From: Actinomycetota bacterium
Lineage (GTDB): Bacteria; Actinomycetota; UBA4738; HRBIN12
Direction: 5' to 3'
DNA length: 64,000 bases
Assembly: GCA_040902745.1 (NCBI GenBank)
Contig: JBBDWR010000029.1
Span: 8,791-72,790, forward strand
Of the stretch, positions 7,204 through 49,620 are shown piece by piece (positions within the stretch are counted from its first letter, which is position 1; each line of letters begins with the position of its first letter). The notes under the pieces were generated by a model. It made no database searches. It had not been told where the DNA came from and saw nothing but the letters and a program-made list of their open reading frames with translations. The translations under genes and the position numbers were made by a program.

Positions 7204-9402
7204 TCAGTTGGCGGACGCGTCGGCCGGCTGCTTGGACTTGGTCTTAGGTTCCGACGGGGTCGCGTCCGGGGTCGCGTCGGGGGTCGCGGCCGGCGTGTCG
7301 GGCAGCTCGATCGGCTTATCGTCGGCTTCGTCGAAGCGATCGAGACCAACGGCCTCCCGGACCCGACGCTCGATCTCCTGCCGAACGTCTTCGTGCTCCA
7401 CGAGGAACTGACGCGCGTTCTCCCGGCCCTGACCCAGCTGTTCGCCCTCGTAGGTGAACCAGGCGCCACTCTTCTTGACGATCTCCAAGTCGACACCGAC
7501 GTCGAGCAGACTGCCTTCGGCGGAGATGCCTTTGCCGTACATGATGTCGAACTCGCACTGCCGGAAGGGCGGGGCGACCTTGTTTTTCACGACCTTGACG
7601 CGGGTGCGCGAACCGACGACCTCGGTGGCGTCCTTGAGGTTCTCGATCTTGCGCACGTCGAGGCGAACGGAGGAGTAGAACTTGAGCGCGCGCCCCCCGG
7701 GGGTTGTCTCCGGCGAGTTGTGCACGACGGTTCCATCGACGAGGTAGTTGTGCGTTCCTTCGACTTCGAGATCGAAGCGATGGGTCGCCCGCGACTTCGC
7801 ACTGCTCCCGATCTCGAGGACGGGCATCGGCATCAGGTCGTATCGCATCGGCACGAAAATCGGCTCGACGCCGAATCGCCCCCGATAGATCGGGAGGAGC
7901 TTGTACTGCATCGACGGGTGTACGAATGGAGCGATGAGCGCGTGCAACTTCGCGGTCTCATCCTTCGGGAACTGCAGTACGGCTTTTTCTGTTCTCGAGA
8001 TGAGCTTGGGCCGGATACCCCACGTGTCGGCAAGCCAATCGGTCAGTCGCTGGCGGCTCGTGGGCTCGATGGATTCGATGCAGATCTCAGAACGCCCACT
8101 GCCTTCCCGGGTGCGTTGCTGCAGGCCCTTGGCACGGAGCTGGAAGCTGCCGTCGTCCATGTACCAAACGGCCAGGGAAAGCGGTGTGAGCTGCTTGAGG
8201 TACTCCTCGCTGACAACCTTCTTGCCACCCACGTACACCGCTCGCCTGAGCTCGGCGAGCTCGGGGAGAGGCGTCATGTCGTGGAAGACAGCCCCTTTGG
8301 CGTTGGTGGACCGGCTGGAGCCGATGTTGGCGAACAAGCTCGCCTTCCAATCACCGTACTCAACCTGCCGAGCGCCGTGGCCCCATCGGAACCGGCCTGC
8401 ATGTCCACTCTTGCTCGGGGACAAAGCCCCGTCGCCGAGCAAGCCGCCGAGAAGCACTTGCCACTGGAAGTCGGAGAGCCGATGTGGGACGGCTTGGAGC
8501 ACACGGTCGCCGACGTGGAGCTCTTGTGCTTCGCGCCATCCTCCGGGAGTCCGGATCTGGTGGTTGGGGGTGCACGCGAATTGCGAGCGGCCGTTGCCGC
8601 TGGGCTTGGCGACCACGAACTTCGTGAACGATTCGGTGCGACCGTTGTCGAACCAGTTCACGACCTTCTTGGGAACGACCTCGCCCCGCTCGGCGTCGTA
8701 GGAGAGCACCTCCACGGGCATCCGTTGGTTGACGATCTTGCCGATCTTCTCTTGTGTTCCGTCGGCGAGCGTCACTCGTGTCCCATAAGTAAAGCATCCG
8801 AACATCACACCGATCTTCTCGCGCAGCTGGTTGATGAAGATCGCGGTGGTGTCGAATCGGGAAAGGGAGCCGGACAGCTTGCGCATCGCCTGAGACATCA
8901 GACGCGCCTGCAACCCGACGTGTGTGTCGCCCATCTCGCCCTCGATCTCGGCCCGTGGGACAAGTGCGGCGACCGAGTCGATCACGACGAGATCGAGCGC
9001 ACCCGAGCGAACCAGCATGTCGGCGATCTCGAGCGCTTGCTCGCCGGAGTCGGGCTGGGAGACGAGGAGCTCGTCGATGTTGACCCCGAGCTCTTGCGCG
9101 TAGGTGGGATCGAGGGCATGTTCGGCGTCGATGAACGCGGCGATGCCACCCTTCTTCTGCGCCTCGGCGATGATGTGCAGACACACGGTGGTCTTGCCCG
9201 AGCCTTCGGGACCGAAGACCTCGACCACACGGCCCTTCGGGATGCCGCCGACACCGAGTGCGATGTCGAGGGCCATCGATCCCGTCGGGATGATGGACAG
9301 GCCATCGCTCATCGAGTGCTCGCCCAGCTTCATCACCGCGCCCTTGCCGAACTGCTTCTCGATCTGCGAGAGCGTGACGTCGAGCATCTTGTCGCGATCC
9401 AT
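7204..9402 (-). CDS. recA: RecA recombinase precursor containing an intein (732-aa precursor; 372-aa spliced RecA)
   Basis: The N-extein is MDRDKMLDV...GPEGSGKTT...[12 protein letters not shown] (202 aa) and the C-extein is [20 protein letters not shown]... (170 aa). Joined, they read as a canonical RecA core (P-loop, L1/L2 loops). A 360-aa insert lies between them. Confidence 0.95.
7717..8796 (-). mobile_element. RecA intein (360 aa) with LAGLIDADG homing-endonuclease domain
   Basis: Block A is [13 protein letters not shown] (Cys1, TGC at 8794-8796), block B is TPNH, and block F/G is [22 protein letters not shown] with terminal Asn and +1 Ser. Two LAGLIDADG motifs are present ([11 protein letters not shown]; VWYMDDGSF). 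The insert interrupts the conserved KIGVMFG|SPETT RecA segment. Confidence 0.9.
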
Positions 9403-9544
9403 GCGCGGTTCCTCCCTTATGGCCCCCTCGACCGCGCGGTGTTCGCGCCGACGAGCCCTTCCCCATCGATGCCGAGCACCCTAGTGAGGGGGTCCGACAC
9501 AGGTTACATCGGTGTGATTCGGTGGACGATGTGGCCGACGCTAG

Positions 9545-9936: not shown

Positions 9937-9999
9937 GATGCGGAGGGCACCGGCCCTAGGGCGCAGGCCCATTGTCTACATCGCCCCCAGTAGCGCACT

Positions 10000-11721
10000 A
10001 TGGGTCGGACCTCGCGGCGGCGCGAGGCGAGGAGACCCAACGTGACACTGCCCGATACCGATCGACGATCCTTCCTACGCGCCGTGATCGTGTCGTGCCT
10101 GTTGACGGGACTGCTCGCCTCTCCTTCGGCAGCGTTCGTCCAAGGCGCCGCGGATCCCACCTGGCAGACGAACGGACGCGTGAACGCGATCGTCGAGGTC
10201 GGCAACATCGTGTATCTGGGAGGACTGTTCACCGAGATCCACGACGGACTCGGGGTCTCCCTGCCTCGGGAGCATCTCGCGGCGATCGATCTCACCACCG
10301 GCGAACCGACGCCGTGGAACCCGGGCACCGACGGCGAAGTCTCCGCGCTCGCGGCATCCGCGGACGGCACCACGATCTACGCGGGGGGGTTGTTCAAGAA
10401 CTCCGGCGGTCAGAGCGTCGTGAACCTCGCCGCGCTCGACGCCACGACCGGTCTCGGGGTTCCCGGATGGCGGCCCAAGGTCAGTTCGGCCGTCCGTGCC
10501 CTCGCGGTGTGGGGAACGCGGCTGTACCTGGGCGGCACGTTCGGCTCGATCTCGGGGACGACACGACGCGGCATCGCGGCCTTGACCGCCGCCACCGGCA
10601 AGGTGATGAAGAAGTGGTACCCGGGTGACGTCGATCGCAGCGTGCGCGCGCTCGCCGTCACGGACGAGCGGCTCCTCGTCGGAGGCACGTTTACCGCGAT
10701 CGGCGACAACCCTCGGAACTACGTCACAACCGTCACCCATGCGGGTGCGAAGGTGAAGCCGTGGGCGACGCCGCCCCTCGACCAGGTGCTCGCGCTCTCC
10801 GTACTGGACGGATTCGCCTACGTCGGTTCGCGTTCCAACGAGGTCACCAAACACGTCTTGACCACCGGGGAGCAGCTGTGGGCGGTCGGTGGAGACGGCG
10901 ACGTCCAGGCGGTGCACGCACAGGAGGGCATCGTCTACATCGGCGGGCACTTCGAGAACTTCACCGGTCAGCCGGAGAACAAGGTCGCGGCGGTCAGCAC
11001 CGAGGGGTTCCGCGTCGAGTGGGGAGCATCGGCGAACAGCGTTCACGGTGTCTTCTCGATGGCCGGAGGCACACACCTGTTCATCGGCGGGGACTTCACC
11101 CTTGTGTCTGGGCAGCCGCGCCGTGGCTTCGCCGCGTTCGCTGAGGGCGCGGTACCTCCAGACCCGGGTCAGGCGCTTCCGTTCTCCGACGATTTCACCG
11201 ACGGGTTCGTTCATTGGACGTTCGTCAAGGGTTTCGTGACCGACGAGGTGGAGTTCGGTGACGCCGCGCCGAGTGCCGGCAGCGCCTTGATCCTCGACAA
11301 AGCCTTCGCTTTCAAGGACCTCGGTTCGCCGGTGCCCGACGCCTGCGTACGCGCCGACGTTCGGGTGGCGTCGCACGACGGATCGGTGACGTTGCTCCGC
11401 CTGCGAGAACAGGATGGAAGCGGCCTCGTTCGGGTGTTCATCGACTCGACGGATCACCTGAAACTGCGGGCCGACCTGTCGGACCTGACCTACTCCTCGG
11501 TCGGCCGCACGAAGATTCCGGCCGGCTGGAGCACCCTGGAACTGTGCGGACGGACCTCCAACGGCACCGTCTCCGCGTCCTTGAACGGCACCGATCTCGG
11601 CTCGTTTCCCGCCGCTTTCGGTCTGCTCGGCATCGGCCGCCTGCAGATCGGCGACGACAACGAGAAAACCGTGACCTACAACTTCGACGACATCACCGCC
11701 GAAGTTCCTGCGACTCCCTAG
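10000..11721 (+). CDS. Secreted (Tat-type signal) seven-bladed beta-propeller repeat protein with a C-terminal lectin/LamG-like domain
   Basis: The N-terminus has a Tat motif (DRRSFLRAVIV...ASPSAAFVQG). Seven ~50-60-aa repeats follow, each ending hydrophobic-Y/L-x-GG-x-F (IVYLGGLF, TIYAGGLF, RLYLGGTF, RLLVGGTF, FAYVGSRS, IVYIGGHF, HLFIGGDF). A ~200-aa beta-rich C-terminal domain completes the protein. Confidence 0.7.
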   Translation: MGRTSRRREARRPNVTLPDTDRRSFLRAVIVSCLLTGLLASPSAAFVQGAADPTWQTNGRVNAIVEVGNIVYLGGLFTEIHDGLGVSLPREHLAAIDLTTGEPTPWNPGTDGEVSALAASADGTTIYAGGLFKNSGGQSVVNLAALDATTGLGVPGWRPKVSSAVRALAVWGTRLYLGGTFGSISGTTRRGIAALTAATGKVMKKWYPGDVDRSVRALAVTDERLLVGGTFTAIGDNPRNYVTTVTHAGAKVKPWATPPLDQVLALSVLDGFAYVGSRSNEVTKHVLTTGEQLWAVGGDGDVQAVHAQEGIVYIGGHFENFTGQPENKVAAVSTEGFRVEWGASANSVHGVFSMAGGTHLFIGGDFTLVSGQPRRGFAAFAEGAVPPDPGQALPFSDDFTDGFVHWTFVKGFVTDEVEFGDAAPSAGSALILDKAFAFKDLGSPVPDACVRADVRVASHDGSVTLLRLREQDGSGLVRVFIDSTDHLKLRADLSDLTYSSVGRTKIPAGWSTLELCGRTSNGTVSASLNGTDLGSFPAAFGLLGIGRLQIGDDNEKTVTYNFDDITAEVPATP

Positions 11722-14419: not shown

Positions 14420-14537
14420 ACGAACACTCTCCGTGGCCCCGTGACCTGCTGCGGGACAGTGCGTATCGCGGCGCGATGCACGCCTCGCGGCTGACTGCTA
14501 GGCTCCGCGCACGTACATACGAAGACTCCACGTGACT

Positions 14538-14712
14538 GCAGGCGAAGTCCGGTCAAAATCCGGCGCTGTCCCGCAACGGTAGGTCCACCCTCGGGTGGGC
14601 GAGCCCGGTCGCCCTGACGGTCACGAGGGCTGAACGAACCTCCGCGGAGAAGTCGCAGCCACCGGGACACCGTTCCCGCGCCACGACCCTCCCTGAAGTG
14701 GAGGGTCGTTCC
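14538..14712 (+). promoter_or_regulatory. Cobalamin (B12) riboswitch
   Basis: gaaGTCCGGTCAAAATCCGGCGCTGTCCCGCAACGGTAggtcc matches the most conserved core of the cobalamin aptamer. A B12-box-like GCAGCCACCGGGAC lies downstream. It sits in a 330-bp intergenic region immediately 5' of a transporter operon. Confidence 0.8.
14683..14709 (+). terminator. Riboswitch expression-platform hairpin (10-bp perfect stem acgaccctcc/ggagggtcgt, 7-nt loop)
   Basis: A perfect inverted repeat sits directly after the aptamer, followed by tcccgtt. The downstream RBS ggaagga and ATG are at 14749. Confidence 0.5.
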
Positions 14713-14748
14713 CGTTGGGCGCGAGGCACGCCCGGGAAGGAGCTCCAC

Positions 14749-15777
14749 ATGTGTCACACCCTCCGCAGGTCGTTCGGCTTGCTCGTCGCGGCAGCACTCA
14801 CGTTGGCCGTCGTGTCCCCCGCATCCGCCGCACCGACGGACTCGGTGGTCCGTGCCAGGTCGGCTGCCGGGTTCATCGCCACACAGCAGAAGAACAACGG
14901 CTCGATCCCCGCCTTCTCTCCGGTCGGATCCACCGCCGACGCGGTCATGTCGCTGGTCGCCGTGAAACGCGGCCCGATCACGATCAAGAAGGCTCTTGCG
15001 TACCTGGCACGCCAGACCCAGAACGGCAATGTGGTCGGTATCGGGCTGCAGGCCAAGGTCGCGATGGCCGCCGTCGCCGGCGGTCGCGATCCGTCCAGCT
15101 TCGGCGGCGAGGATCTGATCGACGCGATCGCCTCAACGGAACTGCCCAACGGCCGGTTCGGGAGCGGCACCGCCGTGTTCGATCAGTCGCTGGCGATCCT
15201 GGCGCTCTCCGCTGCAGGCGAGACCGTGTCCGACGACGCGGAGGGCTGGCTGGCCGAGGCGCAGTGTCCCGACGGCGGATGGGAGTACCTGGCCAGGTGG
15301 TCGCCGTCGAGCGACGACCACTGCGTGAGCGAGGTCGATCCGGGCAATGACTTCTTCGGATCGGACACCAACACCACGTCATACGCGGTGCAAGCGCTCG
15401 CCTCCGTCGGCGGCGACGCGCTCGCGAACGCGCCGTTCGACTTCTTCACCGCGATCCGCGATCCGCAGTTCGGCGGCTGGGGCTACTCGTGGGGGTACGC
15501 GACCGACGCGAACTCCACGAGCCTCGTGGTGCAGGCGTTTGCCGCCGACGCGCGCACGGTCCCGGCGGGGGCGCTCGCCGCGCTCAAGAAACTGCAGTAC
15601 AAGGATTGCGGCGCGTTCGCCTTTACCTGGATCCCGGACGGCGGGGACTTCGTCAAGAGCGCGCCGGATCCCGGCGCGACGATCTCGGCGATCGTCGGGT
15701 TGCTGGTACGCCCGTATCCCGTCCCGCCGTCACCGGTGACCAAGCCGGCGCCGTCAACACCGGCGTGCCCGTCGTAG
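14749..15777 (+). CDS. Secreted prenyltransferase/squalene-oxidase-repeat protein (alpha/alpha-toroid fold); candidate corrinoid-binding alpha-domain-like protein
   Basis: Signal peptide MCHTLRRSFGLLVAAALTLAVVSPASA. Six or more Q-x-x-[DN]-G-[GS]-[WF]-type repeats are present (QQKNNGSI, QTQNGNVVG, ELPNGRFG, QCPDGGWEY, DPQFGGWGY, KDCGAFAF). Start taken at Met18 of the ORF on RBS grounds. It is the first gene after the B12 riboswitch. Confidence 0.75.
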   Translation: MCHTLRRSFGLLVAAALTLAVVSPASAAPTDSVVRARSAAGFIATQQKNNGSIPAFSPVGSTADAVMSLVAVKRGPITIKKALAYLARQTQNGNVVGIGLQAKVAMAAVAGGRDPSSFGGEDLIDAIASTELPNGRFGSGTAVFDQSLAILALSAAGETVSDDAEGWLAEAQCPDGGWEYLARWSPSSDDHCVSEVDPGNDFFGSDTNTTSYAVQALASVGGDALANAPFDFFTAIRDPQFGGWGYSWGYATDANSTSLVVQAFAADARTVPAGALAALKKLQYKDCGAFAFTWIPDGGDFVKSAPDPGATISAIVGLLVRPYPVPPSPVTKPAPSTPACPS

Positions 15778-15786
15778 GAGGACAAG

Positions 15787-16731
15787 ATGCGAGCGCATAG
15801 TGGCATCACCGTGGGGACCCGGCGATGGAGCCGGATCCTGGCGGCAGCCGTCTTCCTCGCGATCGCGGCACCGGCACCGGCATTGCTGTCGACCACGGTG
15901 GCATGCGCGAGCACCCCCCGCCACGCGGCACTCGTGATCGACACCGGAACTCGGGAGTTGGCGTATTGCGTCGCCATCCCGGGGACGGTCGACGGGATCG
16001 AGCTGATCCGCCTCGCCAACCGCCAATACGGCCTGCAGTACTCCTTGGGGTTCGGCGGCGAGGCCGTCTGCCAGCTCGCGGGAGTGGGCGTCACCGGCGG
16101 CGATTGCTTCGCGGACTTCCCCCGCTTCTGGGGGTACTGGCGAGGAGCACCGGCCGGTGGCTGGTCGTGGTCGAGCGTCGGGGCGGGGTCGATCTCGGTC
16201 GGCCCCGGCGACGTCCAAGGATGGAGCTGGGGCACCGGGCAGGACGGCGCATCACATCCGGCTCCTCCGGTCACTCCGCTCACGTCCGTGTGCGATCCAC
16301 CCGCGACGCCGCCCCCGGACGACGACGGCGGCCCGGGCGCGGGCGCAGGCGGGGACGGCAACGACCGCGGGAACAACGGTGGAGGCGGCGGCGGCGCTCC
16401 CTCCGGTTCCGCGAGCGATCAAAGCAGCGGCGACACCCAAGCGGGCGCGCAATCGTCCGGCGCTTCCGACGCAGGCGGGCAACGATCCGATCAGGAGAAC
16501 GGCAGCGAAAGGGAAGCCAGCGGAAGCCACCCGGACACTTCGGATATGAACCCCGTCCCCGATGAGGTCGCGTCGCCTGGATCGAACGCGGCGCCGGTGC
16601 GAGCCGCGGCGCTCGCGAACAACGAGGCAGGGGCCGACCTGCTCCCGGTAGGGCCCATCGTGAGCCTGCTCGCGCTCGGGATGCTACTGGCGGGCGGCGC
16701 GTTCCTCGCCTGGAAGCGGCGTTCGGGCTAG
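15787..16731 (+). CDS. Secreted, C-terminally membrane-anchored protein with a DUF4430-like (transcobalamin beta-domain-like) module and a G/S/D-rich linker
   Basis: Signal peptide, then a ~140-aa domain with DUF4430-like motifs (LAYCVAIPGTVDGIELI, GGEAVCQLAGVGV, FWGYWRG, GPGDVQGWSWG). A ~120-aa G/S/D/N-rich linker follows, then a C-terminal TM helix IVSLLALGMLLAGGAFLAW-KRRSG. The gap to the upstream gene is 9 nt. Confidence 0.6.
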   Translation: MRAHSGITVGTRRWSRILAAAVFLAIAAPAPALLSTTVACASTPRHAALVIDTGTRELAYCVAIPGTVDGIELIRLANRQYGLQYSLGFGGEAVCQLAGVGVTGGDCFADFPRFWGYWRGAPAGGWSWSSVGAGSISVGPGDVQGWSWGTGQDGASHPAPPVTPLTSVCDPPATPPPDDDGGPGAGAGGDGNDRGNNGGGGGGAPSGSASDQSSGDTQAGAQSSGASDAGGQRSDQENGSEREASGSHPDTSDMNPVPDEVASPGSNAAPVRAAALANNEAGADLLPVGPIVSLLALGMLLAGGAFLAWKRRSG

Positions 16732-16734
16732 CCG

Positions 16735-17514
16735 ATGCATCCACTCGCTTGGATCGCGTGGGCCACCGGTGCGGGGCTCGTGGCGTTCAGCACCACGAAC
16801 CCGTGGTACCTGCTCCCGCTCGTCGGCGTCGCATGGTTCGTCCATGCTGCCCATCGACGAGACGGGCCGTGGGCGAGATCGTTCCGCATCTTCCTGGTGT
16901 TCGGCCTTCTCGCGATGGCGATCCGCACCGCACTGGTGTTCTTCGGCACGGTCGATGCCTCCAACGTGACCTACGCCGCGCTCGAGGGGCTGCGCCTAGG
17001 GGTTCTTCTCGTCGTGTTCGGCACCTTCAACTCGGTCACCGATCCGTTCGGCGTGCTTCGATTGGCGCCGCGACGCTTCCACGAGCCTGCGCTTGCCGCG
17101 GCGCTCGCCTTGTCGATCGCGCCCAGGACGATCTCCGCCGCCGCAACGGTGCGGGAGGCGCAAGAACTCCGCGGCTTCCGTTTACGCCGGTGGCGCTCGC
17201 TCCCCGCGCTCGCGATCCCGGTCCTCGAGACCGGGATGGAAGAGGCGATGACGCTCGCGGAGAGCATGGACGCGCGCGGGCACGGTAGTGGCACGCGGTC
17301 GCGCTATCGGCCCCATCGCTGGACACCTGGTTCCGTCGCGACCGCCGGCGTGGGGATCACGGCCGGGAGCGTCTTCCTCGCCGAGGCGATCGCGCACCGT
17401 CCCGATCTGCTCCCGATCACCGATCCCCTGACGTGGCCTCAGGCGGCACCCTGGCTCGTGGGGGTCGTCGTCCTGCTCGCGCTCCCAGGGCTCGTAGCCC
17501 GGAGTGACCTGTGA
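16735..17514 (+). CDS. ECF transporter transmembrane (T) component (CbiQ/EcfT family)
   Basis: 259-aa polytopic membrane protein with the CbiQ-like conserved Arg-rich cytoplasmic coupling segment (AREAQELRGFR...R). Its stop overlaps the ATPase start (GTGA). Confidence 0.85.
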   Translation: MHPLAWIAWATGAGLVAFSTTNPWYLLPLVGVAWFVHAAHRRDGPWARSFRIFLVFGLLAMAIRTALVFFGTVDASNVTYAALEGLRLGVLLVVFGTFNSVTDPFGVLRLAPRRFHEPALAAALALSIAPRTISAAATVREAQELRGFRLRRWRSLPALAIPVLETGMEEAMTLAESMDARGHGSGTRSRYRPHRWTPGSVATAGVGITAGSVFLAEAIAHRPDLLPITDPLTWPQAAPWLVGVVVLLALPGLVARSDL

Positions 17515-19082
17515 GTCCGGCGCTGCGCTATCGAGACGTCACCTTTCGCTACCCCGACGTCGACGAAGCGGCGCTGACGGATGTGACGGTGGATGTCTCC
17601 GAGGGCTCGTTCGCCCTCGTGGTGGGCCCGACCGGCGCGGGGAAATCCACGCTGTTGCGAGCCGCGAACGGGTTGGTCCCGCACTTTTCCGGCGGCACGT
17701 TCGCCGGGGAGGTCACCGTGGCGGGTCGAAGTACGACGACCACGCGACCCCGGGAACTCGCCGATGCGGTCGCGTTCGTCCCCCAAGACCCGGGAGCGTC
17801 GTTCGTGCTCGATCGTGTAGAAGACGAACTCGCGTACGGGATGGAGAACCTCCGCGTTCCCGCCGACCGGATGCGGCGCCGGGTCGAGGAGACACTGGAC
17901 CTGCTCGACATCGAGCGCCTCCGCAAGCGGAGCGTGCGGACGCTGTCGGGCGGAGAACGCCAGCGCGTCGCGATCGCGGCCGCCCTCGCGGCCGGGCCGA
18001 GGCTGCTCGTGCTCGACGAACCGACCAGTCAGCTCGACCCCCAGGGAGCCGAAGACGTGCTCGCCGGCCTCCAGCGGCTCGTTCACGATCACGGGATGAC
18101 GGTGCTGCTCGCGGAACATCGGCTCGAGCGCGTTGCCGGATTCGCGGACGTCGTCCTCGCGGTCCGGAACGGCTCCGTGGTGGCCGGTGCCCCAGCAGAA
18201 CTCCTCGGCAACGCCGTCGGAGGGCCACCGGTCACGCGGGTCGGACGGCTGCTCGGCTGGGACCCGGCGCCGATCACGGTCCGCGAGGCACGCGGCCTCG
18301 CGCGCTCGGTCGCCCTCGCCGATGCCCCCGCTCCCCCGGTCACCGCGCGAGGGGAGGCCCTCGTGCGCGCTCGTGGGGTCGTTGCCGGGTACCCCGGATC
18401 GCCGGTGCTGCGCGACGTCGATCTCGAGATCGCCGAGGGCGAGGTCGTGGCGCTGATGGGACGAAACGGTGCAGGCAAGACGACGCTGCTGCGGTGCTTG
18501 ACCGGCGTCCACGCCCTCGAGCGCGGAACCGTCGAGGTCCCGAGCCGCCCGCCACGGCCGGGCATCGACGTCGCGCTCTGTCCGCAGGAGCCGGAGTCGG
18601 TGCTGTTCGCCGAGACGGTGCGGGAGGAGGTGCAGGCGACGTTGACGGCGCGCGGGGACCAACGTCCCGCCGCGCCGATACTCGAGCGATTCGATCTCTC
18701 CTCGTTCGCCCGACGGCATCCCCGGGATCTCTCCTCGGGACAGCGCCTGCTCGTTGCTGCGGCCGCGGTGTCCGCCGCCGGGGCACCCGTCCTGCTGTTG
18801 GACGAACCGACGCGGGGGCTGGATCCGGAAGCGAAACATCGTCTCGGGCAGTTCCTTCGCGCGCACGGCGACGATGGAGGCGGCGCGATGTTCGCGACAC
18901 ACGATGTCGAGCTGGCCGCGGACGTCGCCACGCGCGTCGTGGTGTTGGCCGGCGGTGAGGTTATCGCGGACGGCAGGCCAGGCGAGGTCCTCGGCGACTC
19001 CCACGTTTTCGCGCCGCAGATGACCCGCGTCTTCGGCCCGGGATGGCTGACCCCCGAGCAGGTTGCGGCGGCGGTGCGATGA
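17511..19082 (+). CDS. Fused duplicated ECF/ABC ATPase (A-A' components)
   Basis: Two complete NBDs: Walker A GPTGAGKST / GRNGAGKTT, signature LSGGERQR / LSSGQRLL, Walker B LLVLDEPT / VLLLDEPT. Confidence 0.9.
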   Translation: MSPALRYRDVTFRYPDVDEAALTDVTVDVSEGSFALVVGPTGAGKSTLLRAANGLVPHFSGGTFAGEVTVAGRSTTTTRPRELADAVAFVPQDPGASFVLDRVEDELAYGMENLRVPADRMRRRVEETLDLLDIERLRKRSVRTLSGGERQRVAIAAALAAGPRLLVLDEPTSQLDPQGAEDVLAGLQRLVHDHGMTVLLAEHRLERVAGFADVVLAVRNGSVVAGAPAELLGNAVGGPPVTRVGRLLGWDPAPITVREARGLARSVALADAPAPPVTARGEALVRARGVVAGYPGSPVLRDVDLEIAEGEVVALMGRNGAGKTTLLRCLTGVHALERGTVEVPSRPPRPGIDVALCPQEPESVLFAETVREEVQATLTARGDQRPAAPILERFDLSSFARRHPRDLSSGQRLLVAAAAVSAAGAPVLLLDEPTRGLDPEAKHRLGQFLRAHGDDGGGAMFATHDVELAADVATRVVVLAGGEVIADGRPGEVLGDSHVFAPQMTRVFGPGWLTPEQVAAAVR

Positions 19083-19954
19083 GCACAGACGGCGGCAACG
19101 GGTGGATGAGGATCGCGGCAACTCCCGAGCGCGTTCGGATCGGCGTGTTGGTCTTCGCGAACGCCGTAGCCGCGTTCGCGTTCGTCTGGCCGTTCCTCGT
19201 TCCAAGTGTGCTCGGCGCGAACGGACCGCATCAGCGCGACGCGCCACTGATCCTACTCGGCGTGCTCGTGTGTCTCAGCGCGGTGCTGTTCGTCGACCTC
19301 GGCCGGGGCGGCATGGGCCCCAAGGCCGTGGCGCTGATCGGCGTGCTCGGAGCCGCGATGGTCGCGCTGCGGCTGCCGGGGTTCGTCGCGGGATTCTCCG
19401 CGATGTTCATCATCGTGCTCGTCGCCGGGAACGCGTTCGGGCCCGGGTTCGGGTTCGTGCTGGGAGCTATCGGAACCTTCGCGAGCGGACTGTTCGTGGG
19501 CGGGCTCGGCCCGTGGCTCCCGTTCCAGATGGCGGCGATCGGATGGGTCGGCCTCGGCGCCGGGCTACTTCCTGGAGCGGGCACCTCGTGGCGGGTTCGC
19601 CTCGCGGCGCTCGCCGCCTACGGGTTCGTCGTCGGATACGCCTTCGGGATCGTGATGAACCTCTGGTCCTGGCCGTTCACCGCGGCCGGATCCGAGCTGA
19701 GCTGGGTCCCGCAGCAGAGCCTCGCCGACAACGTCGAACACTACGTCGCCTACTACGCCGCGACGTCGGCGACGTGGGACACCTTCCGCGCGATCGGCAA
19801 CGCGGCGATGGTCGTGCTCCTCGGCCGGCCGCTGCTCGGCTCCTTGGATCGCGCCGCTCGGCGCATGCGCCTGGACATCCACACGCCCGAGTTCGTCGAA
19901 CCGCTCCCGGTGCAGGACGCTGCAAGCGACGACGGCGCGGTTGCGCTGCGCTGA
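19079..19954 (+). CDS. Polytopic membrane protein in S-component position (putative substrate-capture component of the ECF importer)
   Basis: ~292 aa with ~7-8 predicted TM helices. The start (ATGA) overlaps the ATPase stop and it is the last gene of the riboswitch operon. It is larger than typical S components. Confidence 0.5.
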   Translation: MSTDGGNGWMRIAATPERVRIGVLVFANAVAAFAFVWPFLVPSVLGANGPHQRDAPLILLGVLVCLSAVLFVDLGRGGMGPKAVALIGVLGAAMVALRLPGFVAGFSAMFIIVLVAGNAFGPGFGFVLGAIGTFASGLFVGGLGPWLPFQMAAIGWVGLGAGLLPGAGTSWRVRLAALAAYGFVVGYAFGIVMNLWSWPFTAAGSELSWVPQQSLADNVEHYVAYYAATSATWDTFRAIGNAAMVVLLGRPLLGSLDRAARRMRLDIHTPEFVEPLPVQDAASDDGAVALR

Positions 19955-19960
19955 GAGCGG

Positions 19961-22354
19961 TCAGGCGCTTCGGGTTGAGGAGCGGGACTCTTCCCACTCT
20001 TCTGCAGTGAGCAACACGTCGCGCGCCTTGGACCCCTGGGATGGACCGACCACGCCGCGCTCCTCCAGCAGATCCATCAAGCGTCCGGCGCGGGAGAAGC
20101 CGACCTTGAGCTTGCGCTGCAACATCGAGGTGGAGCCCAGCTGGGAGCGGATCACGAGGTCTGCAGCCTGTTCCAGCAGGTCGTCGTCGTCCGAGGATCC
20201 GGCGCTCACCGCGGCCTCCTCTTCCGCGCTCGGCGGGCGACCGAGTCCCTCCACGGTTGTCTCGTAGACGACCTCTCGCTGACCACGGATCCATTCGGCG
20301 ACCGCGTGGATCTCCTTCTCCGTCACCCAGGCGGCTTGCAGGCGGATCGGCTTGTTGGCGTTGGCGGGGGCATACAGCATGTCGCCGTGCCCGACGAGCT
20401 TCTCGGCGCCGTTCGAGTCGAGGATCACGCGGGAGTCGGCCTGACTCGACGTCATCAACGCGATCCGGCTCGGGATGTTGGCCTTGATCAGCCCGGTGAC
20501 GACATCGACCGAGGGTCGTTGCGTGGCGACCACGAGGTGGATCCCCACGGCGCGCGCCATCTGGGCCACGCGGCAGATCGCGTCCTCCACGGCGCGCGGG
20601 GCGACCATCATCAGGTCTGCGAGCTCGTCGATCACGACAACGAGATATGGGAACTCCACGAACTTCGACTCCTGGCCCGGTGGGATCCGCAGTGTGCCGT
20701 CGGCGAGGCCTTCCCGGTACCCGTCGATGTCGCGGACGCCGCACATCGCGAGGAGTTCGTACCGGTTCTCCATCTCGCGGACGACCCACCCCAGCGCCTC
20801 GGCGGCGCGCTTCGGATGCACGATCACCGGGGAGAGCAGGTGCGGGAGGTCGGCGAAGTGCGACAGCTCCACACGCTTGGGGTCGATCAGGACGAGCTTG
20901 ACCCGATCCGGGTCGGTGCGCATCAGGATCGACGTCACGAACGAGTTGATCAGGCTCGACTTTCCGGCACCGGTCGCGCCGGCGATCAGGACATGCGGCA
21001 TCTTCGCGAGGTCGACCATCTGCGCGCGCCCGTGGACATCCTTGCCGAGCGCGACCGAGAGCTGCAGCGTCTCATCGCGCGCCGCCTTGCTCCGGAGGAT
21101 GTCGCCCAGCGTTACGAAGTCGCGGACCCTGTTCGGGACCTCGACGCCGATCGCGGACCTGCCGGGGATCGGCGCGATGATCCGCACGTCGGGTGTGGCC
21201 AATGCATAGGCGATGTCGTCGGCGAGGTTGAGCACCTTGTTGACCTTGGTGCCCGCGCCGACCTCCACCTCGTAGAGCGTGACCGTGGGCCCGCGGTGGG
21301 CCGTGGGTACCGTCGCCTCCACCCCGAACGTCTGGAACGTGCGCTCGAGGGCGTCCATCGTGTGCTCCTCATCGCTCGTATCGGCTTCCTTCGCCGGAGC
21401 CGTGCGCAACAGATCGAGGGGCGGCAGCTTGTACTCCCCCTGTGCGGCGCGCTTGGAGGCTGCCGCCGCGACCGTCGGAGCGACCGGGGCCGGCGCCAGG
21501 TCGTCCAGTTCCTCCGCGGCCAACGGGATCTTCGCGGGCGCAAACGCCGCGGAGGCAGACGAAGTGGCGTCGTCGGCATCGGGGACCACGATCGTCTGTT
21601 CCGTCGCTGCATCCTCGTCGTCGCTTCGCAGCACCCGTCGACCGCGCACGGGATCCTGCGCAGGCCCCGGAGCGCGATCGCTCCGCTCGTCATCGGCCTC
21701 AACCTCGCTCAGACCGAACGCCCGCGAGAGGGCTCCATCCGAGAACAGCTCCTTGAGCCGAACCCATACGTTCGACAGAGGGGTTCCCGAGAAGATCAGG
21801 ACGCCGAGCAGAACGAGACCGGTACAGACGATCCCGCCGCCGAGCGGTGACAGCGCGGTGCCGAGCGGCCAGCCGAACAAGGAACCGACGGATCCGCCGG
21901 CCTCGGCGATCCCTTGCGCGCGACCGCCGTCCCATCCGTCGAGTGGCGAGGGATTGCCGTTCGTGATCGAGAGGATGCCGAGTACCCCGGCGAACGCGAT
22001 CGCGAACCCGATGAACATCCGCACCCGGTCCTCGTCCGCCGTTTTCCGCAAAAGGAGAACGCCCCAGTACACGGCGATCACCGGGAAGGCGATCGCCGCG
22101 AGCCCGAACGCCCCCTTGAGCAACCATTCGATCGCCCGGCCCGCGCTCCCCGCCGCGTCGAACCAGAGGGCGAGGATCGCAAGGAGCGCGAACACGACGA
22201 GGAAGATCCCGAACGCGTCGCGGGCCCACGGTGCGAGATGGGTACGAACGGGCGTGCGCTCGGATGCGGACGACCTCGCGCCGGAACCTTTCTTGGACGC
22301 ACCGCGACGGCCAGACGACCGGGACGCGGAGCCCCGCTTCGTCTTCGTGGTCAC
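19961..22354 (-). CDS. ftsK: DNA translocase FtsK
   Basis: 797 aa with N-terminal TM helices, a Pro/Ala-rich linker, the FtsK alpha/beta motor (GATGAGKS Walker A) and a C-terminal gamma wHTH domain. Confidence 0.9.
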   Translation of the reverse strand: MTTKTKRGSASRSSGRRGASKKGSGARSSASERTPVRTHLAPWARDAFGIFLVVFALLAILALWFDAAGSAGRAIEWLLKGAFGLAAIAFPVIAVYWGVLLLRKTADEDRVRMFIGFAIAFAGVLGILSITNGNPSPLDGWDGGRAQGIAEAGGSVGSLFGWPLGTALSPLGGGIVCTGLVLLGVLIFSGTPLSNVWVRLKELFSDGALSRAFGLSEVEADDERSDRAPGPAQDPVRGRRVLRSDDEDAATEQTIVVPDADDATSSASAAFAPAKIPLAAEELDDLAPAPVAPTVAAAASKRAAQGEYKLPPLDLLRTAPAKEADTSDEEHTMDALERTFQTFGVEATVPTAHRGPTVTLYEVEVGAGTKVNKVLNLADDIAYALATPDVRIIAPIPGRSAIGVEVPNRVRDFVTLGDILRSKAARDETLQLSVALGKDVHGRAQMVDLAKMPHVLIAGATGAGKSSLINSFVTSILMRTDPDRVKLVLIDPKRVELSHFADLPHLLSPVIVHPKRAAEALGWVVREMENRYELLAMCGVRDIDGYREGLADGTLRIPPGQESKFVEFPYLVVVIDELADLMMVAPRAVEDAICRVAQMARAVGIHLVVATQRPSVDVVTGLIKANIPSRIALMTSSQADSRVILDSNGAEKLVGHGDMLYAPANANKPIRLQAAWVTEKEIHAVAEWIRGQREVVYETTVEGLGRPPSAEEEAAVSAGSSDDDDLLEQAADLVIRSQLGSTSMLQRKLKVGFSRAGRLMDLLEERGVVGPSQGSKARDVLLTAEEWEESRSSTRSA

Positions 22355-25230: not shown

Positions 25231-25788
25231 ATGCCCCGCATCTACACCAAGACCGGTGACGACGGAACCACGGGCCTGCTCTACGGGGGCCGGGTATCGA
25301 AGGCCGATCCCGCGACGGAGGCGTACGGCACGGTCGACGAGGCGGTTGCGGCGATCGGACTCGCCCGGGCTTCGAGCGACGAACCGGCCCTCGCCAAGGA
25401 TCTCTTGATGCTCCAGCGCGAACTCTTCGTCGTTGCCGCCGACCTCGCCACGAACCCCCGGGAGCGCGCCAAGCTCGAGGAGGATATCTCCCTGGTGTCC
25501 GAGGGCATGACCCGTCGGCTCGAACGACGGATCGACGAGCTGGTCGCGCAAGCTCCTCTCCCCCAGATGTTCATCGTACCCGGCGCGAACCCGACCAGCG
25601 CCGCGACCGACCTCGCGCGCAGCATCGTGCGGCGTGCCGAGCGGCTCGTGGTTGCCCTGCTAGACGAACCCGCGCGCGAAGCCAATCCGGAGGTGCAGCG
25701 GTACCTGAACCGGCTCAGTGATCTGCTCTTCGTACTCGCGCGTTGGGCCGCGGGGGAGTCCGAACCGGCGAGCCGGAAGGACGCCTAG
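25231..25788 (+). CDS. PduO-type ATP:cob(I)alamin adenosyltransferase
   Basis: 185 aa. The N-terminus MPRIYTKTGDDGTTGL and the helical bundle are diagnostic of the PduO/MMAB family. Confidence 0.85.
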   Translation: MPRIYTKTGDDGTTGLLYGGRVSKADPATEAYGTVDEAVAAIGLARASSDEPALAKDLLMLQRELFVVAADLATNPRERAKLEEDISLVSEGMTRRLERRIDELVAQAPLPQMFIVPGANPTSAATDLARSIVRRAERLVVALLDEPAREANPEVQRYLNRLSDLLFVLARWAAGESEPASRKDA

Positions 25789-38914: not shown

Positions 38915-39825
38915 GCGATTGGCGTCGGGGCCCCCGGAGGGGCCGCCGGCGCCAGGATGACCTCGGGCTGTGCCCTCGAAGCCGCATCGCGGTACACACC
39001 CACGAGGTGCCCGTCGGGTGCGAACACGCCGTAGGGACCTTGGATCCCGGCCGGCGCCAGGATCCGCCCGTGCGACGCCGCGATGGCCTCTTCGGGATGT
39101 AGATCGATCCGCGGCAGGTGCGCCACTGCAGCTTCGAGGGGCAACGGATCTCCCAGATCGGTCGGCGTCACCGCCGCCGTCAAGCCGAACGGCCCGATCC
39201 GCGTGCGGACGAGTCGCGTCAGGTGCGCGCCGCAGCCGAGCGCCGTCCCCACGTCGGCGAGCAGCACACGCACATACGTGCCACTCGAGCAGGTGACGCG
39301 GAAGTCCACCTCCGGGGATGCGAACCGCTCGATCTCGAACTCTTCGACCCGGATCGGTCGAGCCTTCGCTTCGAGCCGCTCACCCGCCCGCGCCGCCTCG
39401 TAGAGTTTGCGCCCCCCGACCTTGACCGCCGAATATGCCGGTGGACGCTGATCGGAGTCCCCGACCAGCGCGCCGACCGCCGCATCCAGCGATGCCCGCT
39501 CGACCGCGACCTCGACCGTGCGCACAACCGCGCCTTGAGCGTCAAGCGTGTCGGTTTGGACCCCGAGCCGTGCGGTTCCCTGGTAGGCCTTCGGGAGATC
39601 GGCCAGGAACCGGAGCAGCCGGGTGGCGCGGCCGACGCCGACGAGCAACACACCCGTGGCCATCGGGTCGAGGGTGCCCGCGTGTCCCACCTTCCGCGTG
39701 CTGAGCGCGCGTCGAACCGCGTCCACGACGTCGTGCGAAGTCATGGCGGGCGGCTTGTCGATCACCAGCAGCCCGTCGGGGCCCGGGCCGTCGCCGTGAG
39801 CACGACCGCGGCGAGCAGCACTCAC
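38911..39825 (-). CDS. truB: tRNA pseudouridine(55) synthase
   Basis: The GTG start (GTGA overlap with nrnA) gives ...GLLVIDKPPAMTSHDVV...GHAGTLDP (catalytic Asp). Confidence 0.9.
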   Translation of the reverse strand: MSAARRGRAHGDGPGPDGLLVIDKPPAMTSHDVVDAVRRALSTRKVGHAGTLDPMATGVLLVGVGRATRLLRFLADLPKAYQGTARLGVQTDTLDAQGAVVRTVEVAVERASLDAAVGALVGDSDQRPPAYSAVKVGGRKLYEAARAGERLEAKARPIRVEEFEIERFASPEVDFRVTCSSGTYVRVLLADVGTALGCGAHLTRLVRTRIGPFGLTAAVTPTDLGDPLPLEAAVAHLPRIDLHPEEAIAASHGRILAPAGIQGPYGVFAPDGHLVGVYRDAASRAQPEVILAPAAPPGAPTPIA

Positions 39826-49340: not shown

Positions 49341-49448
49341 CGGGGGAACTCCGCGGAACTCCCCCGACCCTACCGCACGGGCGCCGGAGACCGTCCACGT
49401 CAACGACCTCTCGCCCAATGTTTGACGGAACCCGAGCGAGCTGGCACG

Positions 49449-49526
49449 ATGCCCCGGATGAGCGTTCTGGCGGAAGGCTGGGTGTGGCGCTTGGGCTCGA
49501 TGAGCCCGGTGCCGACACGCGCCTGA
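49449..49526 (+). CDS. Candidate trp leader peptide (MPRMSVLAEGWVWRLGSMSPVPTRA) with two Trp codons
   Basis: A small ORF ~95 nt upstream of trpE contains tgg-gtg-tgg. It is followed by overlapping alternative hairpins and an intrinsic terminator. Confidence 0.5.
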   Translation: MPRMSVLAEGWVWRLGSMSPVPTRA

Positions 49527-49555
49527 TCCTCCACCAGCAACGACGACGCGGCCGG

Positions 49556-49581
49556 CCCCGGGCGATAAGCCCGGGGTTTTT
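49556..49581 (+). terminator. Attenuator terminator upstream of trpE (stem ccccgggc/gcccgggg, loop gataa, then TTTTT)
   Basis: An 8-bp perfect GC stem plus a U5 tract lies 40 nt before the trpE RBS (gaaggagga) and its GTG start. Confidence 0.6.
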
Positions 49582-49620
49582 CCGTTCCGGACCCGCCGAC
49601 GAACCACAGAAGGAGGACCG

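Follow-up and report, generated by a model that had tools for sequence, protein, structure and literature searches.

A predicted corrinoid uptake operon encoding a proposed two-chain transcobalamin-like trap downstream of a cobalamin riboswitch in an uncultured actinobacterium

The eukaryotic cobalamin carriers transcobalamin, intrinsic factor and haptocorrin are soluble single polypeptides that are taken up through endocytic receptors. Among bacterial systems, BtuF, a class III periplasmic binding protein, feeds a type II ABC importer, and BtuG, BtuH and BtuJ feed the TonB-dependent transporter BtuB. Both BtuFCD and the BtuG/BtuH/BtuJ proteins of Bacteroides rely on extracytoplasmic high-affinity B12 binders that pass the vitamin to a transporter, and are commonly controlled by B12 riboswitches. 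A bacterial transcobalamin-like clade of SLBB beta-grasp domains, which are secreted or anchored and contain a beta-hairpin insert after the helix, has been delineated by Burroughs, Balaji, Iyer and Aravind (2007; PMC1796856); alpha/alpha toroids accompany these domains, before or after them, in the same polypeptide or as the product of a neighboring gene, and their operons include genes for a CbiO-like ATPase and a CbiQ-like membrane protein. The domains were predicted to scavenge B12 or its precursors. That survey included low-GC Gram-positives, planctomycetes and euryarchaea but not actinobacteria. In the report on the Lactobacillus sakei operon lsa1836-1840 (Verplaetse et al., bioRxiv 10.1101/864751), the encoded proteins are an S component, a fused A-A' ATPase, EcfT and two exported proteins, one transcobalamin-beta-like and the other a separate alpha-like protein of the prenyltransferase fold, and the authors propose that the exported pair scavenges a ligand for delivery to the S component. 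ECF-CbrT of Lactobacillus delbrueckii, an ECF-type ATP-driven importer of cobalamin and cobinamide that was predicted from genomic association with B12 metabolism, employs a group II ECF module common to other S components and functions without extracytoplasmic proteins (Santos et al. 2018, PMC5997447).

We analyzed a 64-kb stretch of DNA (hereafter, the window) from an uncultured actinobacterium in which a riboswitch is followed on its 3' side by five co-directional genes, for the exported proteins A and B, EcfT, a fused AA' ATPase and an S component (Table 1). This locus is probably a B12-repressed corrinoid uptake operon with a two-chain, membrane-tethered transcobalamin-like trap. All features named in an earlier, sequence-only reading (the aptamer core, the hairpin and the five genes) were found in their places, and its central interpretation, a split transcobalamin-like pair combined with an ECF importer, is supported by the riboswitch, the folds, the gene order and natural gene fusions. 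From A to S, consecutive genes lie 9 or 3 nt apart or share 4-nt overlaps: the start of the ATPase gene overlaps the EcfT stop codon as GTGA, and, judging from the sequence, the S component probably starts at the ATG at 19079, with an ATGA overlap with the ATPase stop codon, which would yield a protein of 291 aa. Within a set of 80 related loci, the order A-B-T-AA'-S and the close-packed or overlapping frames are retained in all 70 that are long enough for this count.

Table 1. Features of the riboswitch-operon locus (window coordinates)
Feature	Coordinates	Strand	Basis
Candidate -10 promoter element TAGGCT (TAnnnT type), with TGC just before	14499..14504	+	Inference only
Cobalamin riboswitch aptamer of the compact subtype (short P6 hairpin)	14524..14675	+	RF00174 local match and relatives-only model R1
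GC-rich 10-bp hairpin, putative expression platform (ACGACCCUCC ... GGAGGGUCGU)	14683..14709	+	Exact arms; part of the minimum-free-energy fold
Conserved hairpin GGGCG-CGAGGCA-CGCCC by the Shine-Dalgarno sequence, plus the Shine-Dalgarno sequence	14717..14742	+	Leader conservation, covariation
Gene A, secreted alpha/alpha-toroid protein, 342 aa, proposed alpha half of a corrinoid trap	14749..15777	+	Signal peptide, QW-type motifs, structure model
Gene B, signal peptide, transcobalamin-beta/SLBB-fold domain (residues ~40-170), linker and anchor	15787..16731	+	Sequence features, structure model
EcfT, T component, 259 aa	16735..17514	+	Pfam CbiQ, E 2e-5
Fused EcfA-EcfA' ATPase, 523 aa	17511..19082	+	Pfam and NCBIfam
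S component, polytopic membrane protein	19043..19954	+	PF12822 ECF_trnsprt

The riboswitch in the window is real, far beyond chance expectation. The proposed match of the leader, with its aptamer core AAATCCGGCGCTGTCCCGCAACGGTA (14556-14581), to RF00174 was recovered in a local Rfam search at 14548-14608 (26.7 bits, E 5e-5; model positions 51-163 only), but this score falls under the gathering score of 31.5 bits, and a search of the whole window at that threshold yielded no match. The riboswitch is supported by the covariance model R1, which was built from 44 relatives with the window sequence excluded and matched over its full length with 117.2 bits (E 6e-23), the sole significant match in the 64 kb. 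A cobalamin riboswitch occupies the equivalent position in 79 of the 80 related loci, the 80th being an incomplete contig; 75 carry the same compact subtype as the window, and the 4 remaining complete loci contain a classical RF00174 aptamer (86-96 bits). Cobalamin control has thus persisted across a switch of aptamer type. In the family alignment, 97.3% of the cells are paired, compared to 45.6% or less in slid controls, both-sided changes are present in 13 of the 26 riboswitch pairs, and the observed covariation values were attained in 0 of 500 shuffles. The closing helix in the window, CGUGAC/GUCACG (14531-14536 with 14620-14625), is a compensated form of the family consensus GCGUCGC/GCGACGC. 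Upstream of the aptamer, the TGCTAnnnT motif that contains the candidate -10 element is found at a constant distance in most of the related leaders; a scan of the leader for the sigma-70 consensus found no promoter, as expected for a high-GC actinobacterium.

The 10-bp hairpin that follows the aptamer (arms ACGACCCTCC/GGAGGGTCGT at 14683-14692 and 14700-14709) had been labeled a terminator, a label that is not supported: the sequence 3' of the hairpin is UCCCGUUGGG, which lacks a U-run, and the hairpin was not called by intrinsic terminator prediction. Many relatives possess such a hairpin and some do not, and we infer that it is part of the expression platform. Next to the Shine-Dalgarno sequence (GGAAGGAG, 14735-14742), the stretch GGGCGCG(A/C)GGACGCCCGGAAAGGAG is one of the best conserved in the leaders of the relatives. 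The stem adjoining the Shine-Dalgarno sequence covaries, with GGG/CCC replaced by CCC/GGG in 5-8 sequences, and in 32-36 of 50 sequences the predicted structure includes a flanking UCC:GGA pairing, which would occlude part of the Shine-Dalgarno sequence; together, this covariation and the predicted pairing suggest that the operon is controlled at the level of translation.

Protein A begins with a signal peptide (...SPASA/AP) and carries 2-3 QW-type motifs, and an identical protein is named 'prenyltransferase/squalene oxidase repeat-containing' at NCBI. Its structure was modeled with confidence as an alpha/alpha toroid (pLDDT 94), in agreement with the initial view of A, and neither of the terpene-synthase catalytic motifs, DxDD and DDxxD, was found in the protein. 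A is a soluble toroid without a membrane anchor of its own and, in a monoderm, would diffuse away unless held by B. Protein B begins with a signal peptide and comprises a conserved domain of ~130 aa, a disordered, G/S/D-rich linker of ~110 aa and, toward the C-terminus, a hydrophobic segment with KRR after it. In the model of B, the helix is followed by a two-strand insert (E50-53 and E58-62), the hallmark of the transcobalamin-like SLBB clade, in which this insert contacts B12 (Burroughs et al. 2007, PMC1796856). Structure comparison showed that the closest folds to B are all B12 binders; the fold matches include 3u7z, described by its depositors as a 'putative metal binding protein'. The similarity of B to DUF4430 and the transcobalamin beta-domain that had been claimed thus stands for the fold and not for the sequence: the Pfam model PF14478 (DUF4430) matched neither B nor any of 74 family members, and no link of B to DUF4430 or transcobalamin was detected at the sequence level. 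Because the PF14478 model misses B, its placement in the clade of Burroughs et al. is by fold.

Natural single-chain fusions of the toroid and beta domains of the A-B type exist. The fusion protein P0359 combines a toroid, a beta domain and a transmembrane anchor, and its gene takes the place of A and B directly upstream of homologs of EcfT (E 2e-28) and the ECF ATPase (56% identity), whereas in P0347 the toroid comes after two beta domains; the T homolog after the fusion gene in locus L081 is 37% identical to EcfT. Among the NCBIfam models, A partially matches SCO2321_fam (E 2.6e-30; 105.6 bits vs the curated cut-off of 300) and B partially matches SCO2322_fam (E 2e-6; 28.2 bits vs the curated cut-off of 85), and Pfam PF28005 'SCO2322' is present in most B homologs. 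In Streptomyces coelicolor, SCO2321 and SCO2322 are adjacent by locus number; SCO2321 has been annotated as a membrane protein, whereas A lacks an anchor. A literature search found no published function for SCO2321 or SCO2322.

In the ECF module, EcfT scores 24.7 bits against Pfam CbiQ (cut-off 25) and shows 52-74% identity across the related loci. The ATPase comprises two ABC_tran domains (Pfam, E 8.5e-53), with ECF_ATPase_1 (E 1.8e-86) and ECF_ATPase_2 (E 9.7e-83) as the top NCBIfam models. The S component, with 56-78% identity among relatives, reaches 29.8 bits against PF12822 ECF_trnsprt (cut-off 30.7, E 7.5e-7); it matched no NCBIfam family, and sequence and profile searches against solved S components, including CbrT, detected no relative. 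The designation 'CbrT-type' is accordingly not supported: in contrast to the shared module of CbrT, the window operon encodes an ECF module of its own, with a fused ATPase, and its S component shows no detectable CbrT similarity.

Compared to the eukaryotic carriers, to which neither A nor B shows detectable sequence similarity, the two halves here are encoded by separate genes, one product is membrane-tethered, and the proposed delivery is to an ABC-type importer. The Btu systems have unrelated binder folds and transporters; the likeness is functional and does not reflect homology. The L. sakei operon, as far as the accessible text goes, comes from a Firmicute and has the order S-AA'-T-beta-alpha, the reverse of that in the window; no riboswitch is mentioned there, whereas the window operon is under a cobalamin riboswitch. 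Compared by description, the beta protein here differs from that of L. sakei in its sequence family (PF28005) and its long-linker membrane tether.

The sole experimentally studied operon of this design, that of L. sakei, has been assigned to heme, not B12, which counts against a corrinoid substrate, as does the lack of any B12-dependent enzyme within the 64-kb window. The heme assignment, for an operon with the same parts, is based on a deletion that lowered heme uptake and on the docking of heme at the modeled alpha/beta interface, and heme-specific ECF transporters (LhaSTA) are also on record. However, with cobalamin riboswitches of two aptamer subtypes over the operon in 79 of the 80 loci and B12 binders throughout the closest folds of B, heme or another tetrapyrrole is a very unlikely substrate here. 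To our knowledge, B12 riboswitches control B12 synthesis, cobalt/B12 transport and B12-independent isozymes, and not heme uptake. Cobalt uptake is often under such riboswitches, so a CbiMNQO-like cobalt (or nickel) transporter, with A and B as accessory binders of metal or metallophore, could be envisaged, especially as CbiQ is the best Pfam match of EcfT, the ATPase matches a cbiO subfamily model, and the 3u7z deposition points to metal. Nevertheless, CbiQ and CbiO are generic T and A families, PF12822 is a family of vitamin-type S components, CbiM is absent from the Pfam matches of S at E <= 0.01, no CbiN-like gene is present, and a toroid paired with a beta domain is the architecture of an organic-cofactor binder, making metal transport highly improbable. 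It is hardly plausible, too, that A acts outside the cytoplasm as an enzyme on an envelope or environmental substrate, being a toroid of the terpenoid-cyclase-like or glycoside-hydrolase-like kind, with a purely regulatory link to B12: the DxDD and DDxxD motifs are missing, and A is always paired, and sometimes fused, with a transcobalamin-beta-fold domain beside an ECF module. We know of no isoprenoid diphosphate substrates available outside the cell.

A different objection is that characterized ECF importers, including ECF-CbrT, work without an extracytoplasmic binder, so that A and B might bind corrinoids at the surface without feeding the ECF module, as a store or to withhold B12 from competitors, while S captures its substrate alone. 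The long flexible tether of B fits distant capture as well as delivery, and surface B12-binding reservoirs of Bacteroides, such as BtuJ1 and BtuH, have been described. We consider such a store unlikely, given that the strict order and the close-packed or overlapping frames in 70/70 loci, along with the direct coupling of the fusion gene to the T and A genes, point to one machine whose parts are made in fixed proportions. The PduO gene, suggested earlier to complete a salvage route, is real but is unlinked to the operon in all 80 relatives.

If the locus is indeed a corrinoid uptake operon with an extracytoplasmic trap, its purpose would be the scavenging of B12, other cobamides or cobinamide. 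At high intracellular cobalamin, the leader aptamer would bind cobalamin and expression would drop, most likely through occlusion of the ribosome-binding site, possibly with premature termination added. When B12 is scarce, the ECF importer (EcfT, the fused A-A' ATPase and its own S component) would be made, and A and B would be exported. Anchored in the membrane by its C-terminus, B would display its transcobalamin-beta-type (SLBB) domain outside on the ~110-residue linker and, together with A, would make up the two-chain counterpart of transcobalamin. The corrinoid, sandwiched by this pair, would be held at the surface of a cell without an outer membrane and handed over to the S component, to be imported at the expense of ATP. 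This design was predicted in 2007 (Burroughs et al., PMC1796856) and described for L. sakei lsa1836-1840 in 2019 (bioRxiv 10.1101/864751); the operon analyzed here, from an uncultured actinobacterium, is an actinobacterial case of a widely conserved design.

The operon lies between an inorganic pyrophosphatase gene, which ends at position 14419, and a convergent ftsK gene, and consists of a 330-nt leader followed by five co-directional genes that encode two exported proteins (A and B) and the T, fused A-A' and S components of an ECF transporter (see the table). The genes are tightly packed, with 9 nt between A and B, 3 nt between B and the EcfT gene, and a GTGA overlap between the EcfT and ATPase genes. 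The longest open reading frame of the S component shares 40 nt with the ATPase gene; an in-frame ATG that overlaps the stop codon of the ATPase gene as ATGA (19079-19082) is probably the actual start. Every sequence feature that an earlier, sequence-only reading had listed for 14538-19954 was recovered at the same coordinates.

Coordinates of the operon, its leader, other features of the window and features of related loci
Feature	Sequence	Coordinates	Strand	Remark
Gene A	window	14749-15777	+	secreted toroid
Gene B	window	15787-16731	+	signal peptide, beta domain, linker, anchor
EcfT gene	window	16735-17514	+	T component
Fused A-A' ATPase gene	window	17511-19082	+	523 aa
S component gene	window	19043-19954	+	polytopic S component; longest ORF, likelier start 19079 (291 aa)
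RF00174 match	window	14548-14608		partial
R1 match	window	14524-14675		full length
10-bp hairpin	window	14683-14692 and 14700-14709		two arms
GGGCGCG(A/C)GGACGCCCGGAAAGGAG	window	14717-14742	+	alignment A4 columns ~265-298
Codons for residues 173-192 of A	window	15265-15324		C173, D175, H191, C192
ftsK	window	19961-22354	-	convergent
PduO-type adenosyltransferase gene	window	25231-25788		
recA	window	7204-9480	-	interrupted by intein
ORF	window	9994-11721	+	575 aa
ORF	window	39103-39900	+	265 aa stop-to-stop
ORF	window	47775-49631	-	618 aa stop-to-stop
Classical long RF00174 riboswitch	L002	7657-7872		upstream of operon
Classical long RF00174 riboswitch	L003	7751-7892		upstream of operon
Classical long RF00174 riboswitch	L004	5752-5898		upstream of operon
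Classical long RF00174 riboswitch	L005	6520-6667		upstream of operon
RNase P RNA gene	L019	6383-6761	+	
RNase P RNA gene	L020	5885-6307	+	
RNase P RNA gene	L042	5981-6383	+	
RNase P RNA gene	L061	5734-6098	+	
RNase P RNA gene	L060	7597-7954	-	
P0347 paralogue array	L082	1-3570		
P0347 paralogue array	L084	1-2710		

The window derives from an uncultured member of the Actinomycetota, and database proteins identical to A and B are recorded on a 223,909-bp MAG contig. For comparison, 80 loci encoding A homologues were taken from species-representative genomes. The order A-B-T-AA'-S, with the ECF genes present, is conserved in every one of the 70 loci of sufficient length, and B directly follows A in 77 of the 80. 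Two loci, each with a typical operon, bear the labels Bifidobacteriaceae (L021) and Planctomycetaceae (L065), probably through errors in MAG binning or labelling; the other 78 loci are labelled Actinomycetota, Actinomycetes or Actinobacteria. An RNase P RNA gene is located 35-834 nt downstream of the S gene in five relatives, the place occupied by the convergent ftsK in the window.

A search of the whole 64-kb window against Rfam at its gathering thresholds gave no match. On the leader alone, with permissive filters, RF00174 yielded a match that covers only the core (model positions 51-163 of 189), at 26.7 bits against a gathering score of 31.5 (E 5e-5); the aptamer core GCUGUCCCGCAACGGUA and GAGCCCGG are both present. 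We do not read the whole-window result as absence because the aptamer is demonstrated by the relatives and by a family-specific model. In 73 of the 80 loci, the core GCTGTCCCGCAAC[T/G]GT lies ~200 nt ahead of the A homologue, and at the position of the core, 12 of the 18 loci tested score above the Rfam gathering threshold of RF00174 or RF01482. An alignment of 50 leaders has a consensus structure with 17 of the 32 pairs kept through two-sided changes; in the aptamer alignment of 44 relatives, without the window, 97.3% of the cells are paired (45.6% at most with slid partners), 13 of the 26 pairs change in a compensatory manner, and the observed values are not reached by any of 500 shuffles. 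R1, a covariance model built from these 44 relatives with the window excluded, has a single significant match in the 64 kb (117.2 bits, E 6e-23) and one match upstream of the A homologue in 75 of the 80 loci. Of the other five loci, four (L002-L005) have a riboswitch of the classical, long RF00174 type (86-96 bits) at the equivalent position; in the fifth, the contig ends 104 nt upstream of the gene.

The compact aptamer subtype, found in the window and 75 other loci, has a short P6 hairpin, which explains the low Rfam score of the window copy. With respect to RF00174/CL00101, this copy stays below the gathering score and contains the conserved core and the B12-box region in a covarying multi-helix junction; the leaders at the equivalent position in relatives are bona fide members. 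Hence the cobalamin riboswitch of the sequence-only reading is real, as attested by R1, the relatives and the covariation, whereas the RF00174 check that it proposed is borderline for the window copy alone. The A homologues of L002-L005, the loci with the classical aptamer, are close to the A protein of the window (54-55% identity), so the aptamer type has been exchanged within the operon family. Judging from the R1 and RF00174 matches across the loci, cobalamin control appears to be a fixed property of this family that has outlasted the exchange of aptamer subtypes.

The 10-bp hairpin that had been taken for a terminator is present; no T-run follows it, and a terminator scan gave no call, so the hairpin stands and a terminator role is unsupported. 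Immediately 5' of the gene A start codon lies the element GGGCGCG(A/C)GGACGCCCGGAAAGGAG, the conservation of which almost equals that of the aptamer core in ~50 divergent leaders and the stem of which covaries. A UCC:GGA pairing flanking this stem would mask part of the Shine-Dalgarno sequence, and the element is probably the portion of the expression platform that controls access to the ribosome-binding site. Given this conserved, covarying element on the Shine-Dalgarno side and the UCC:GGA pairing, we favor translational control, possibly combined with termination, as the mode of action of the riboswitch.

Protein B begins with a signal peptide, followed by a conserved domain of ~130 aa that is rich in Cys and Trp; a variable low-complexity linker of ~110 aa leads to a C-terminal hydrophobic segment, after which come basic residues. 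The domain had been described as carrying DUF4430-like motifs; a Pfam search with PF14478 (DUF4430) at E <= 10 gave no match in B, in 74 family members or in 10 distant members, and phmmer and profile searches of PDB sequences provided no link between B and transcobalamin (the matches of the B profile arise from the low-complexity linker and were discounted). Most B homologues carry the newer Pfam family PF28005 ('SCO2322'), and P0121, the database protein identical to B, has no precomputed Pfam match. The AlphaFold model of B, built from 74 sequences (pLDDT 92), comprises a beta-grasp core with a two-strand insert after the helix, and its closest structural similarity is to the transcobalamin beta domains; in an independent Foldseek search, the top 17 matches, with a probability of 1.00, were confined to the set of folds closest to B. 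As modelled, the fold of B is unambiguously that of a transcobalamin-like SLBB beta domain, and the context of this clade is present as well, with B exported and encoded together with an alpha/alpha toroid and CbiO/CbiQ-type genes. Thus, the earlier assignment of B is right in substance, on account of the fold rather than the motifs.

Protein A is, as had been proposed, an alpha/alpha toroid (model pLDDT 94) with a cleavable signal peptide; it has no anchor and contains four conserved cysteines. The best fold comparisons are with the single-domain class II terpene-cyclase-like proteins 8paj and 8zg0 (24.6 and 24.3; 22%), followed by intrinsic factor (20.0; 16%), transcobalamin (19.2; 18%) and haptocorrin (18.8; 17%), with glycoside hydrolases of the same fold interleaved among the latter three. 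A profile search of PDB sequences retrieved squalene-hopene-type cyclases only, via the QW repeats, and neither A nor B found a chain of transcobalamin, intrinsic factor or haptocorrin in phmmer and profile searches of PDB sequences. Accordingly, the model of A fits a role of the transcobalamin alpha type, to which the fold by itself does not specifically tie it. Invariant motifs of A are GSTADA (residues 60-65), SDTNTT (205-210) and TDANST (252-257). C173, D175, H191 and C192 (AQCxDGGW ... HC) do not vary within the A family either; in the model, they surround a long loop that is probably stapled by a disulfide. That H191 serves as an axial ligand to cobalt is pure speculation, and this histidine is not retained in P0359 and P0347, the distant fusion proteins described below. 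Pfam gave no family for A and B at E 0.01, and neither reaches the curated NCBIfam cut-offs: A scores 105.6 bits with SCO2321_fam (cut-off 300), and B has a weak partial match to SCO2322_fam at 28.2 bits (cut-off 85).

The fused ATPase proved to be, as claimed, a clear double ABC protein of the ECF type, with two ABC_tran domains and ECF_ATPase_1 and ECF_ATPase_2 as the best NCBIfam models. The T component scores just below the PF02361 (CbiQ) cut-off (24.7 bits vs 25, E 2e-5), and its position and sequence are conserved across the loci. The S component is likewise slightly below the cut-off of PF12822 (29.8 bits vs 30.7, E 7.5e-7), matches no NCBIfam family and finds nothing among PDB sequences at E <= 10, a 33-sequence profile giving spurious matches only. 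The S component shows no detectable similarity to CbrT, for which a solved ECF-CbrT structure is reported in PMC5997447, or to other solved structures, and the 'CbrT-type' label is therefore unsupported. The transporter is a dedicated module that includes a divergent S component of its own. In the usual teaching, ECF transporters are ABC importers that lack solute-binding proteins; here, in contrast, two exported proteins are always co-encoded.

An HMM of the B domain, searched against 1.84 billion representative proteins, detected 2,832 clusters (50% identity) at E <= 1e-3, and among the top 150 matches, we found fusions of toroids and B-like domains in both orders. P0359 has a single-chain, transcobalamin-like architecture: an A-like toroid (27% identity, 313 aa, E 6e-13), a B-like domain and a C-terminal anchor. 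It is directly followed on its contig by homologues of EcfT (37% identity, E 2e-28) and the ECF ATPase (56% identity) and therefore fills the slot of A plus B. Rfam finds no riboswitch upstream of the fusion genes on their short contigs; R1 gives a weak partial match upstream of the fusion in locus L081 (32.6 bits, E 4e-4). P0347 contains two B-like domains followed by a toroid and belongs to a paralogue array, with a toroid protein upstream and a B-like protein downstream; the next protein has a C-terminal region resembling the repeat-rich tails of P0362, P0365 and P0378. This array suggests multi-protein surface assemblies, as noted by Burroughs et al. (PMC1796856). Another apparent A-B fusion, P0299, was rejected as a frameshift or gene-calling artefact in which the B part keeps its own signal peptide after an out-of-frame-looking stretch.

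Such a design is not a new principle: its prediction dates from 2007, and an example from a Firmicute was described in 2019. Burroughs, Balaji, Iyer and Aravind (PMC1796856) defined a bacterial transcobalamin-like SLBB clade with the insert after the helix, the element that contacts B12, as its hallmark; they reported members with signal peptides, anchors and alpha/alpha-toroid fusions in either order, in operons with CbiO-like and CbiQ-like genes, and proposed scavenging of B12 or its precursors. For Lactobacillus sakei lsa1836-1840, the preprint of Verplaetse et al. (bioRxiv 10.1101/864751) describes separate exported beta-like and alpha-like proteins beside S, AA' and T, notes that this departs from the definition of ECF transporters as binder-free, and assigns the system to heme. 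Transcobalamin, intrinsic factor and haptocorrin differ in being single chains, alpha then beta, whereas here the halves are two genes. Bacteroides BtuH was considered as a DUF4430-like relative and dropped, the word 'transcobalamin' occurring 0 times in the BtuH paper. Our literature search on actinobacterial SCO2321/SCO2322-type proteins found no paper.

From the riboswitch, the folds, the export signals, the synteny and the fusions, we infer a two-chain corrinoid trap that feeds an ECF importer and is repressed by B12. At low cobalamin, the operon would be expressed; B would be held at the membrane and present its beta domain on the long flexible linker, and the secreted A, which has no anchor, would probably be retained through binding to B. 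A and B would enclose the corrinoid in the manner of the two domains of transcobalamin and deliver it to the S component for ATP-driven import, and at high cobalamin, the leader would switch the operon off. We consider this reading as a whole likely. Of the evidence presented, the fusions argue most strongly that A and B work as a unit with the transporter, and it appears unlikely that the two proteins are binders that do not feed the importer.

Heme or another tetrapyrrole as the ligand, the assignment made for the L. sakei system, is quite improbable here because the near-universal control by cobalamin riboswitches points to a corrinoid; the riboswitch puts the ligand assignment on much firmer ground than in L. 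sakei. Transport of cobalt is very improbable. The same holds for an enzymatic role of A, which shares with terpene cyclases and prenyltransferases only the common fold and QW-type repeats: neither DxDD nor DDxxD occurs in the A protein of the window, and in the family these motifs are not conserved (2 and 5 of 71 members, respectively), so A was rejected as an intact terpene synthase. The corrinoid trap had also been connected to a complete salvage route through the PduO-type adenosyltransferase. This gene is genuine (E 3e-53), but ftsK, RNase J and dapA, three unrelated genes on the other strand, lie between it and the operon, and in none of the 80 related loci does it occur within 8 kb of the operon; it therefore does not count in favor of a linked salvage route.

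The remainder of the window is a block of housekeeping genes and contains no gene for a B12-dependent enzyme or for B12 synthesis. The recA gene is interrupted by an intein with a LAGLIDADG homing endonuclease (RecA in two stretches, E 2e-133; LAGLIDADG_2, E 6e-34; Intein_splicing, 29.3 bits vs a cut-off of 35.8). Two other ORFs, of 618 and 265 aa, have coding-like codon bias and no Pfam match at E <= 1e-5, and the 575-aa ORF ~3 kb upstream of the operon, past cinA, has a single DUF5122 beta-propeller repeat (E 3.5e-7) as its sole Pfam signal.

The known design is extended here by an actinobacterial clade, a beta domain for whose sequence family we found no transcobalamin link, a tethered architecture and near-universal control by cobalamin riboswitches. 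More tentatively, and with rather more doubt than conviction, we suggest that the SCO2322-type family, with its 2,832 clusters, is a large unrecognised reservoir of corrinoid binders and that the actinobacterial ECF transporter truly depends on a two-chain, transcobalamin-like extracytoplasmic receptor; if true, this would be an ECF importer that depends on a binding protein, at odds with the way textbooks define the class. Competition for B12 among Gram-positive soil bacteria is poorly known. The operon offers a clean test case: it is conserved across many uncultured Actinomycetota, A and B are small enough to purify, and a cobalamin riboswitch in 79 of the 80 loci points firmly to the ligand. 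If A and B were shown to bind B12 and to accelerate its transfer to the S component, binder-assisted ECF transport would be established, the 'hypothetical' SCO2321 and SCO2322 families would gain a function, and the 2007 proposal that animal transcobalamins descended from such bacterial proteins would be supported.
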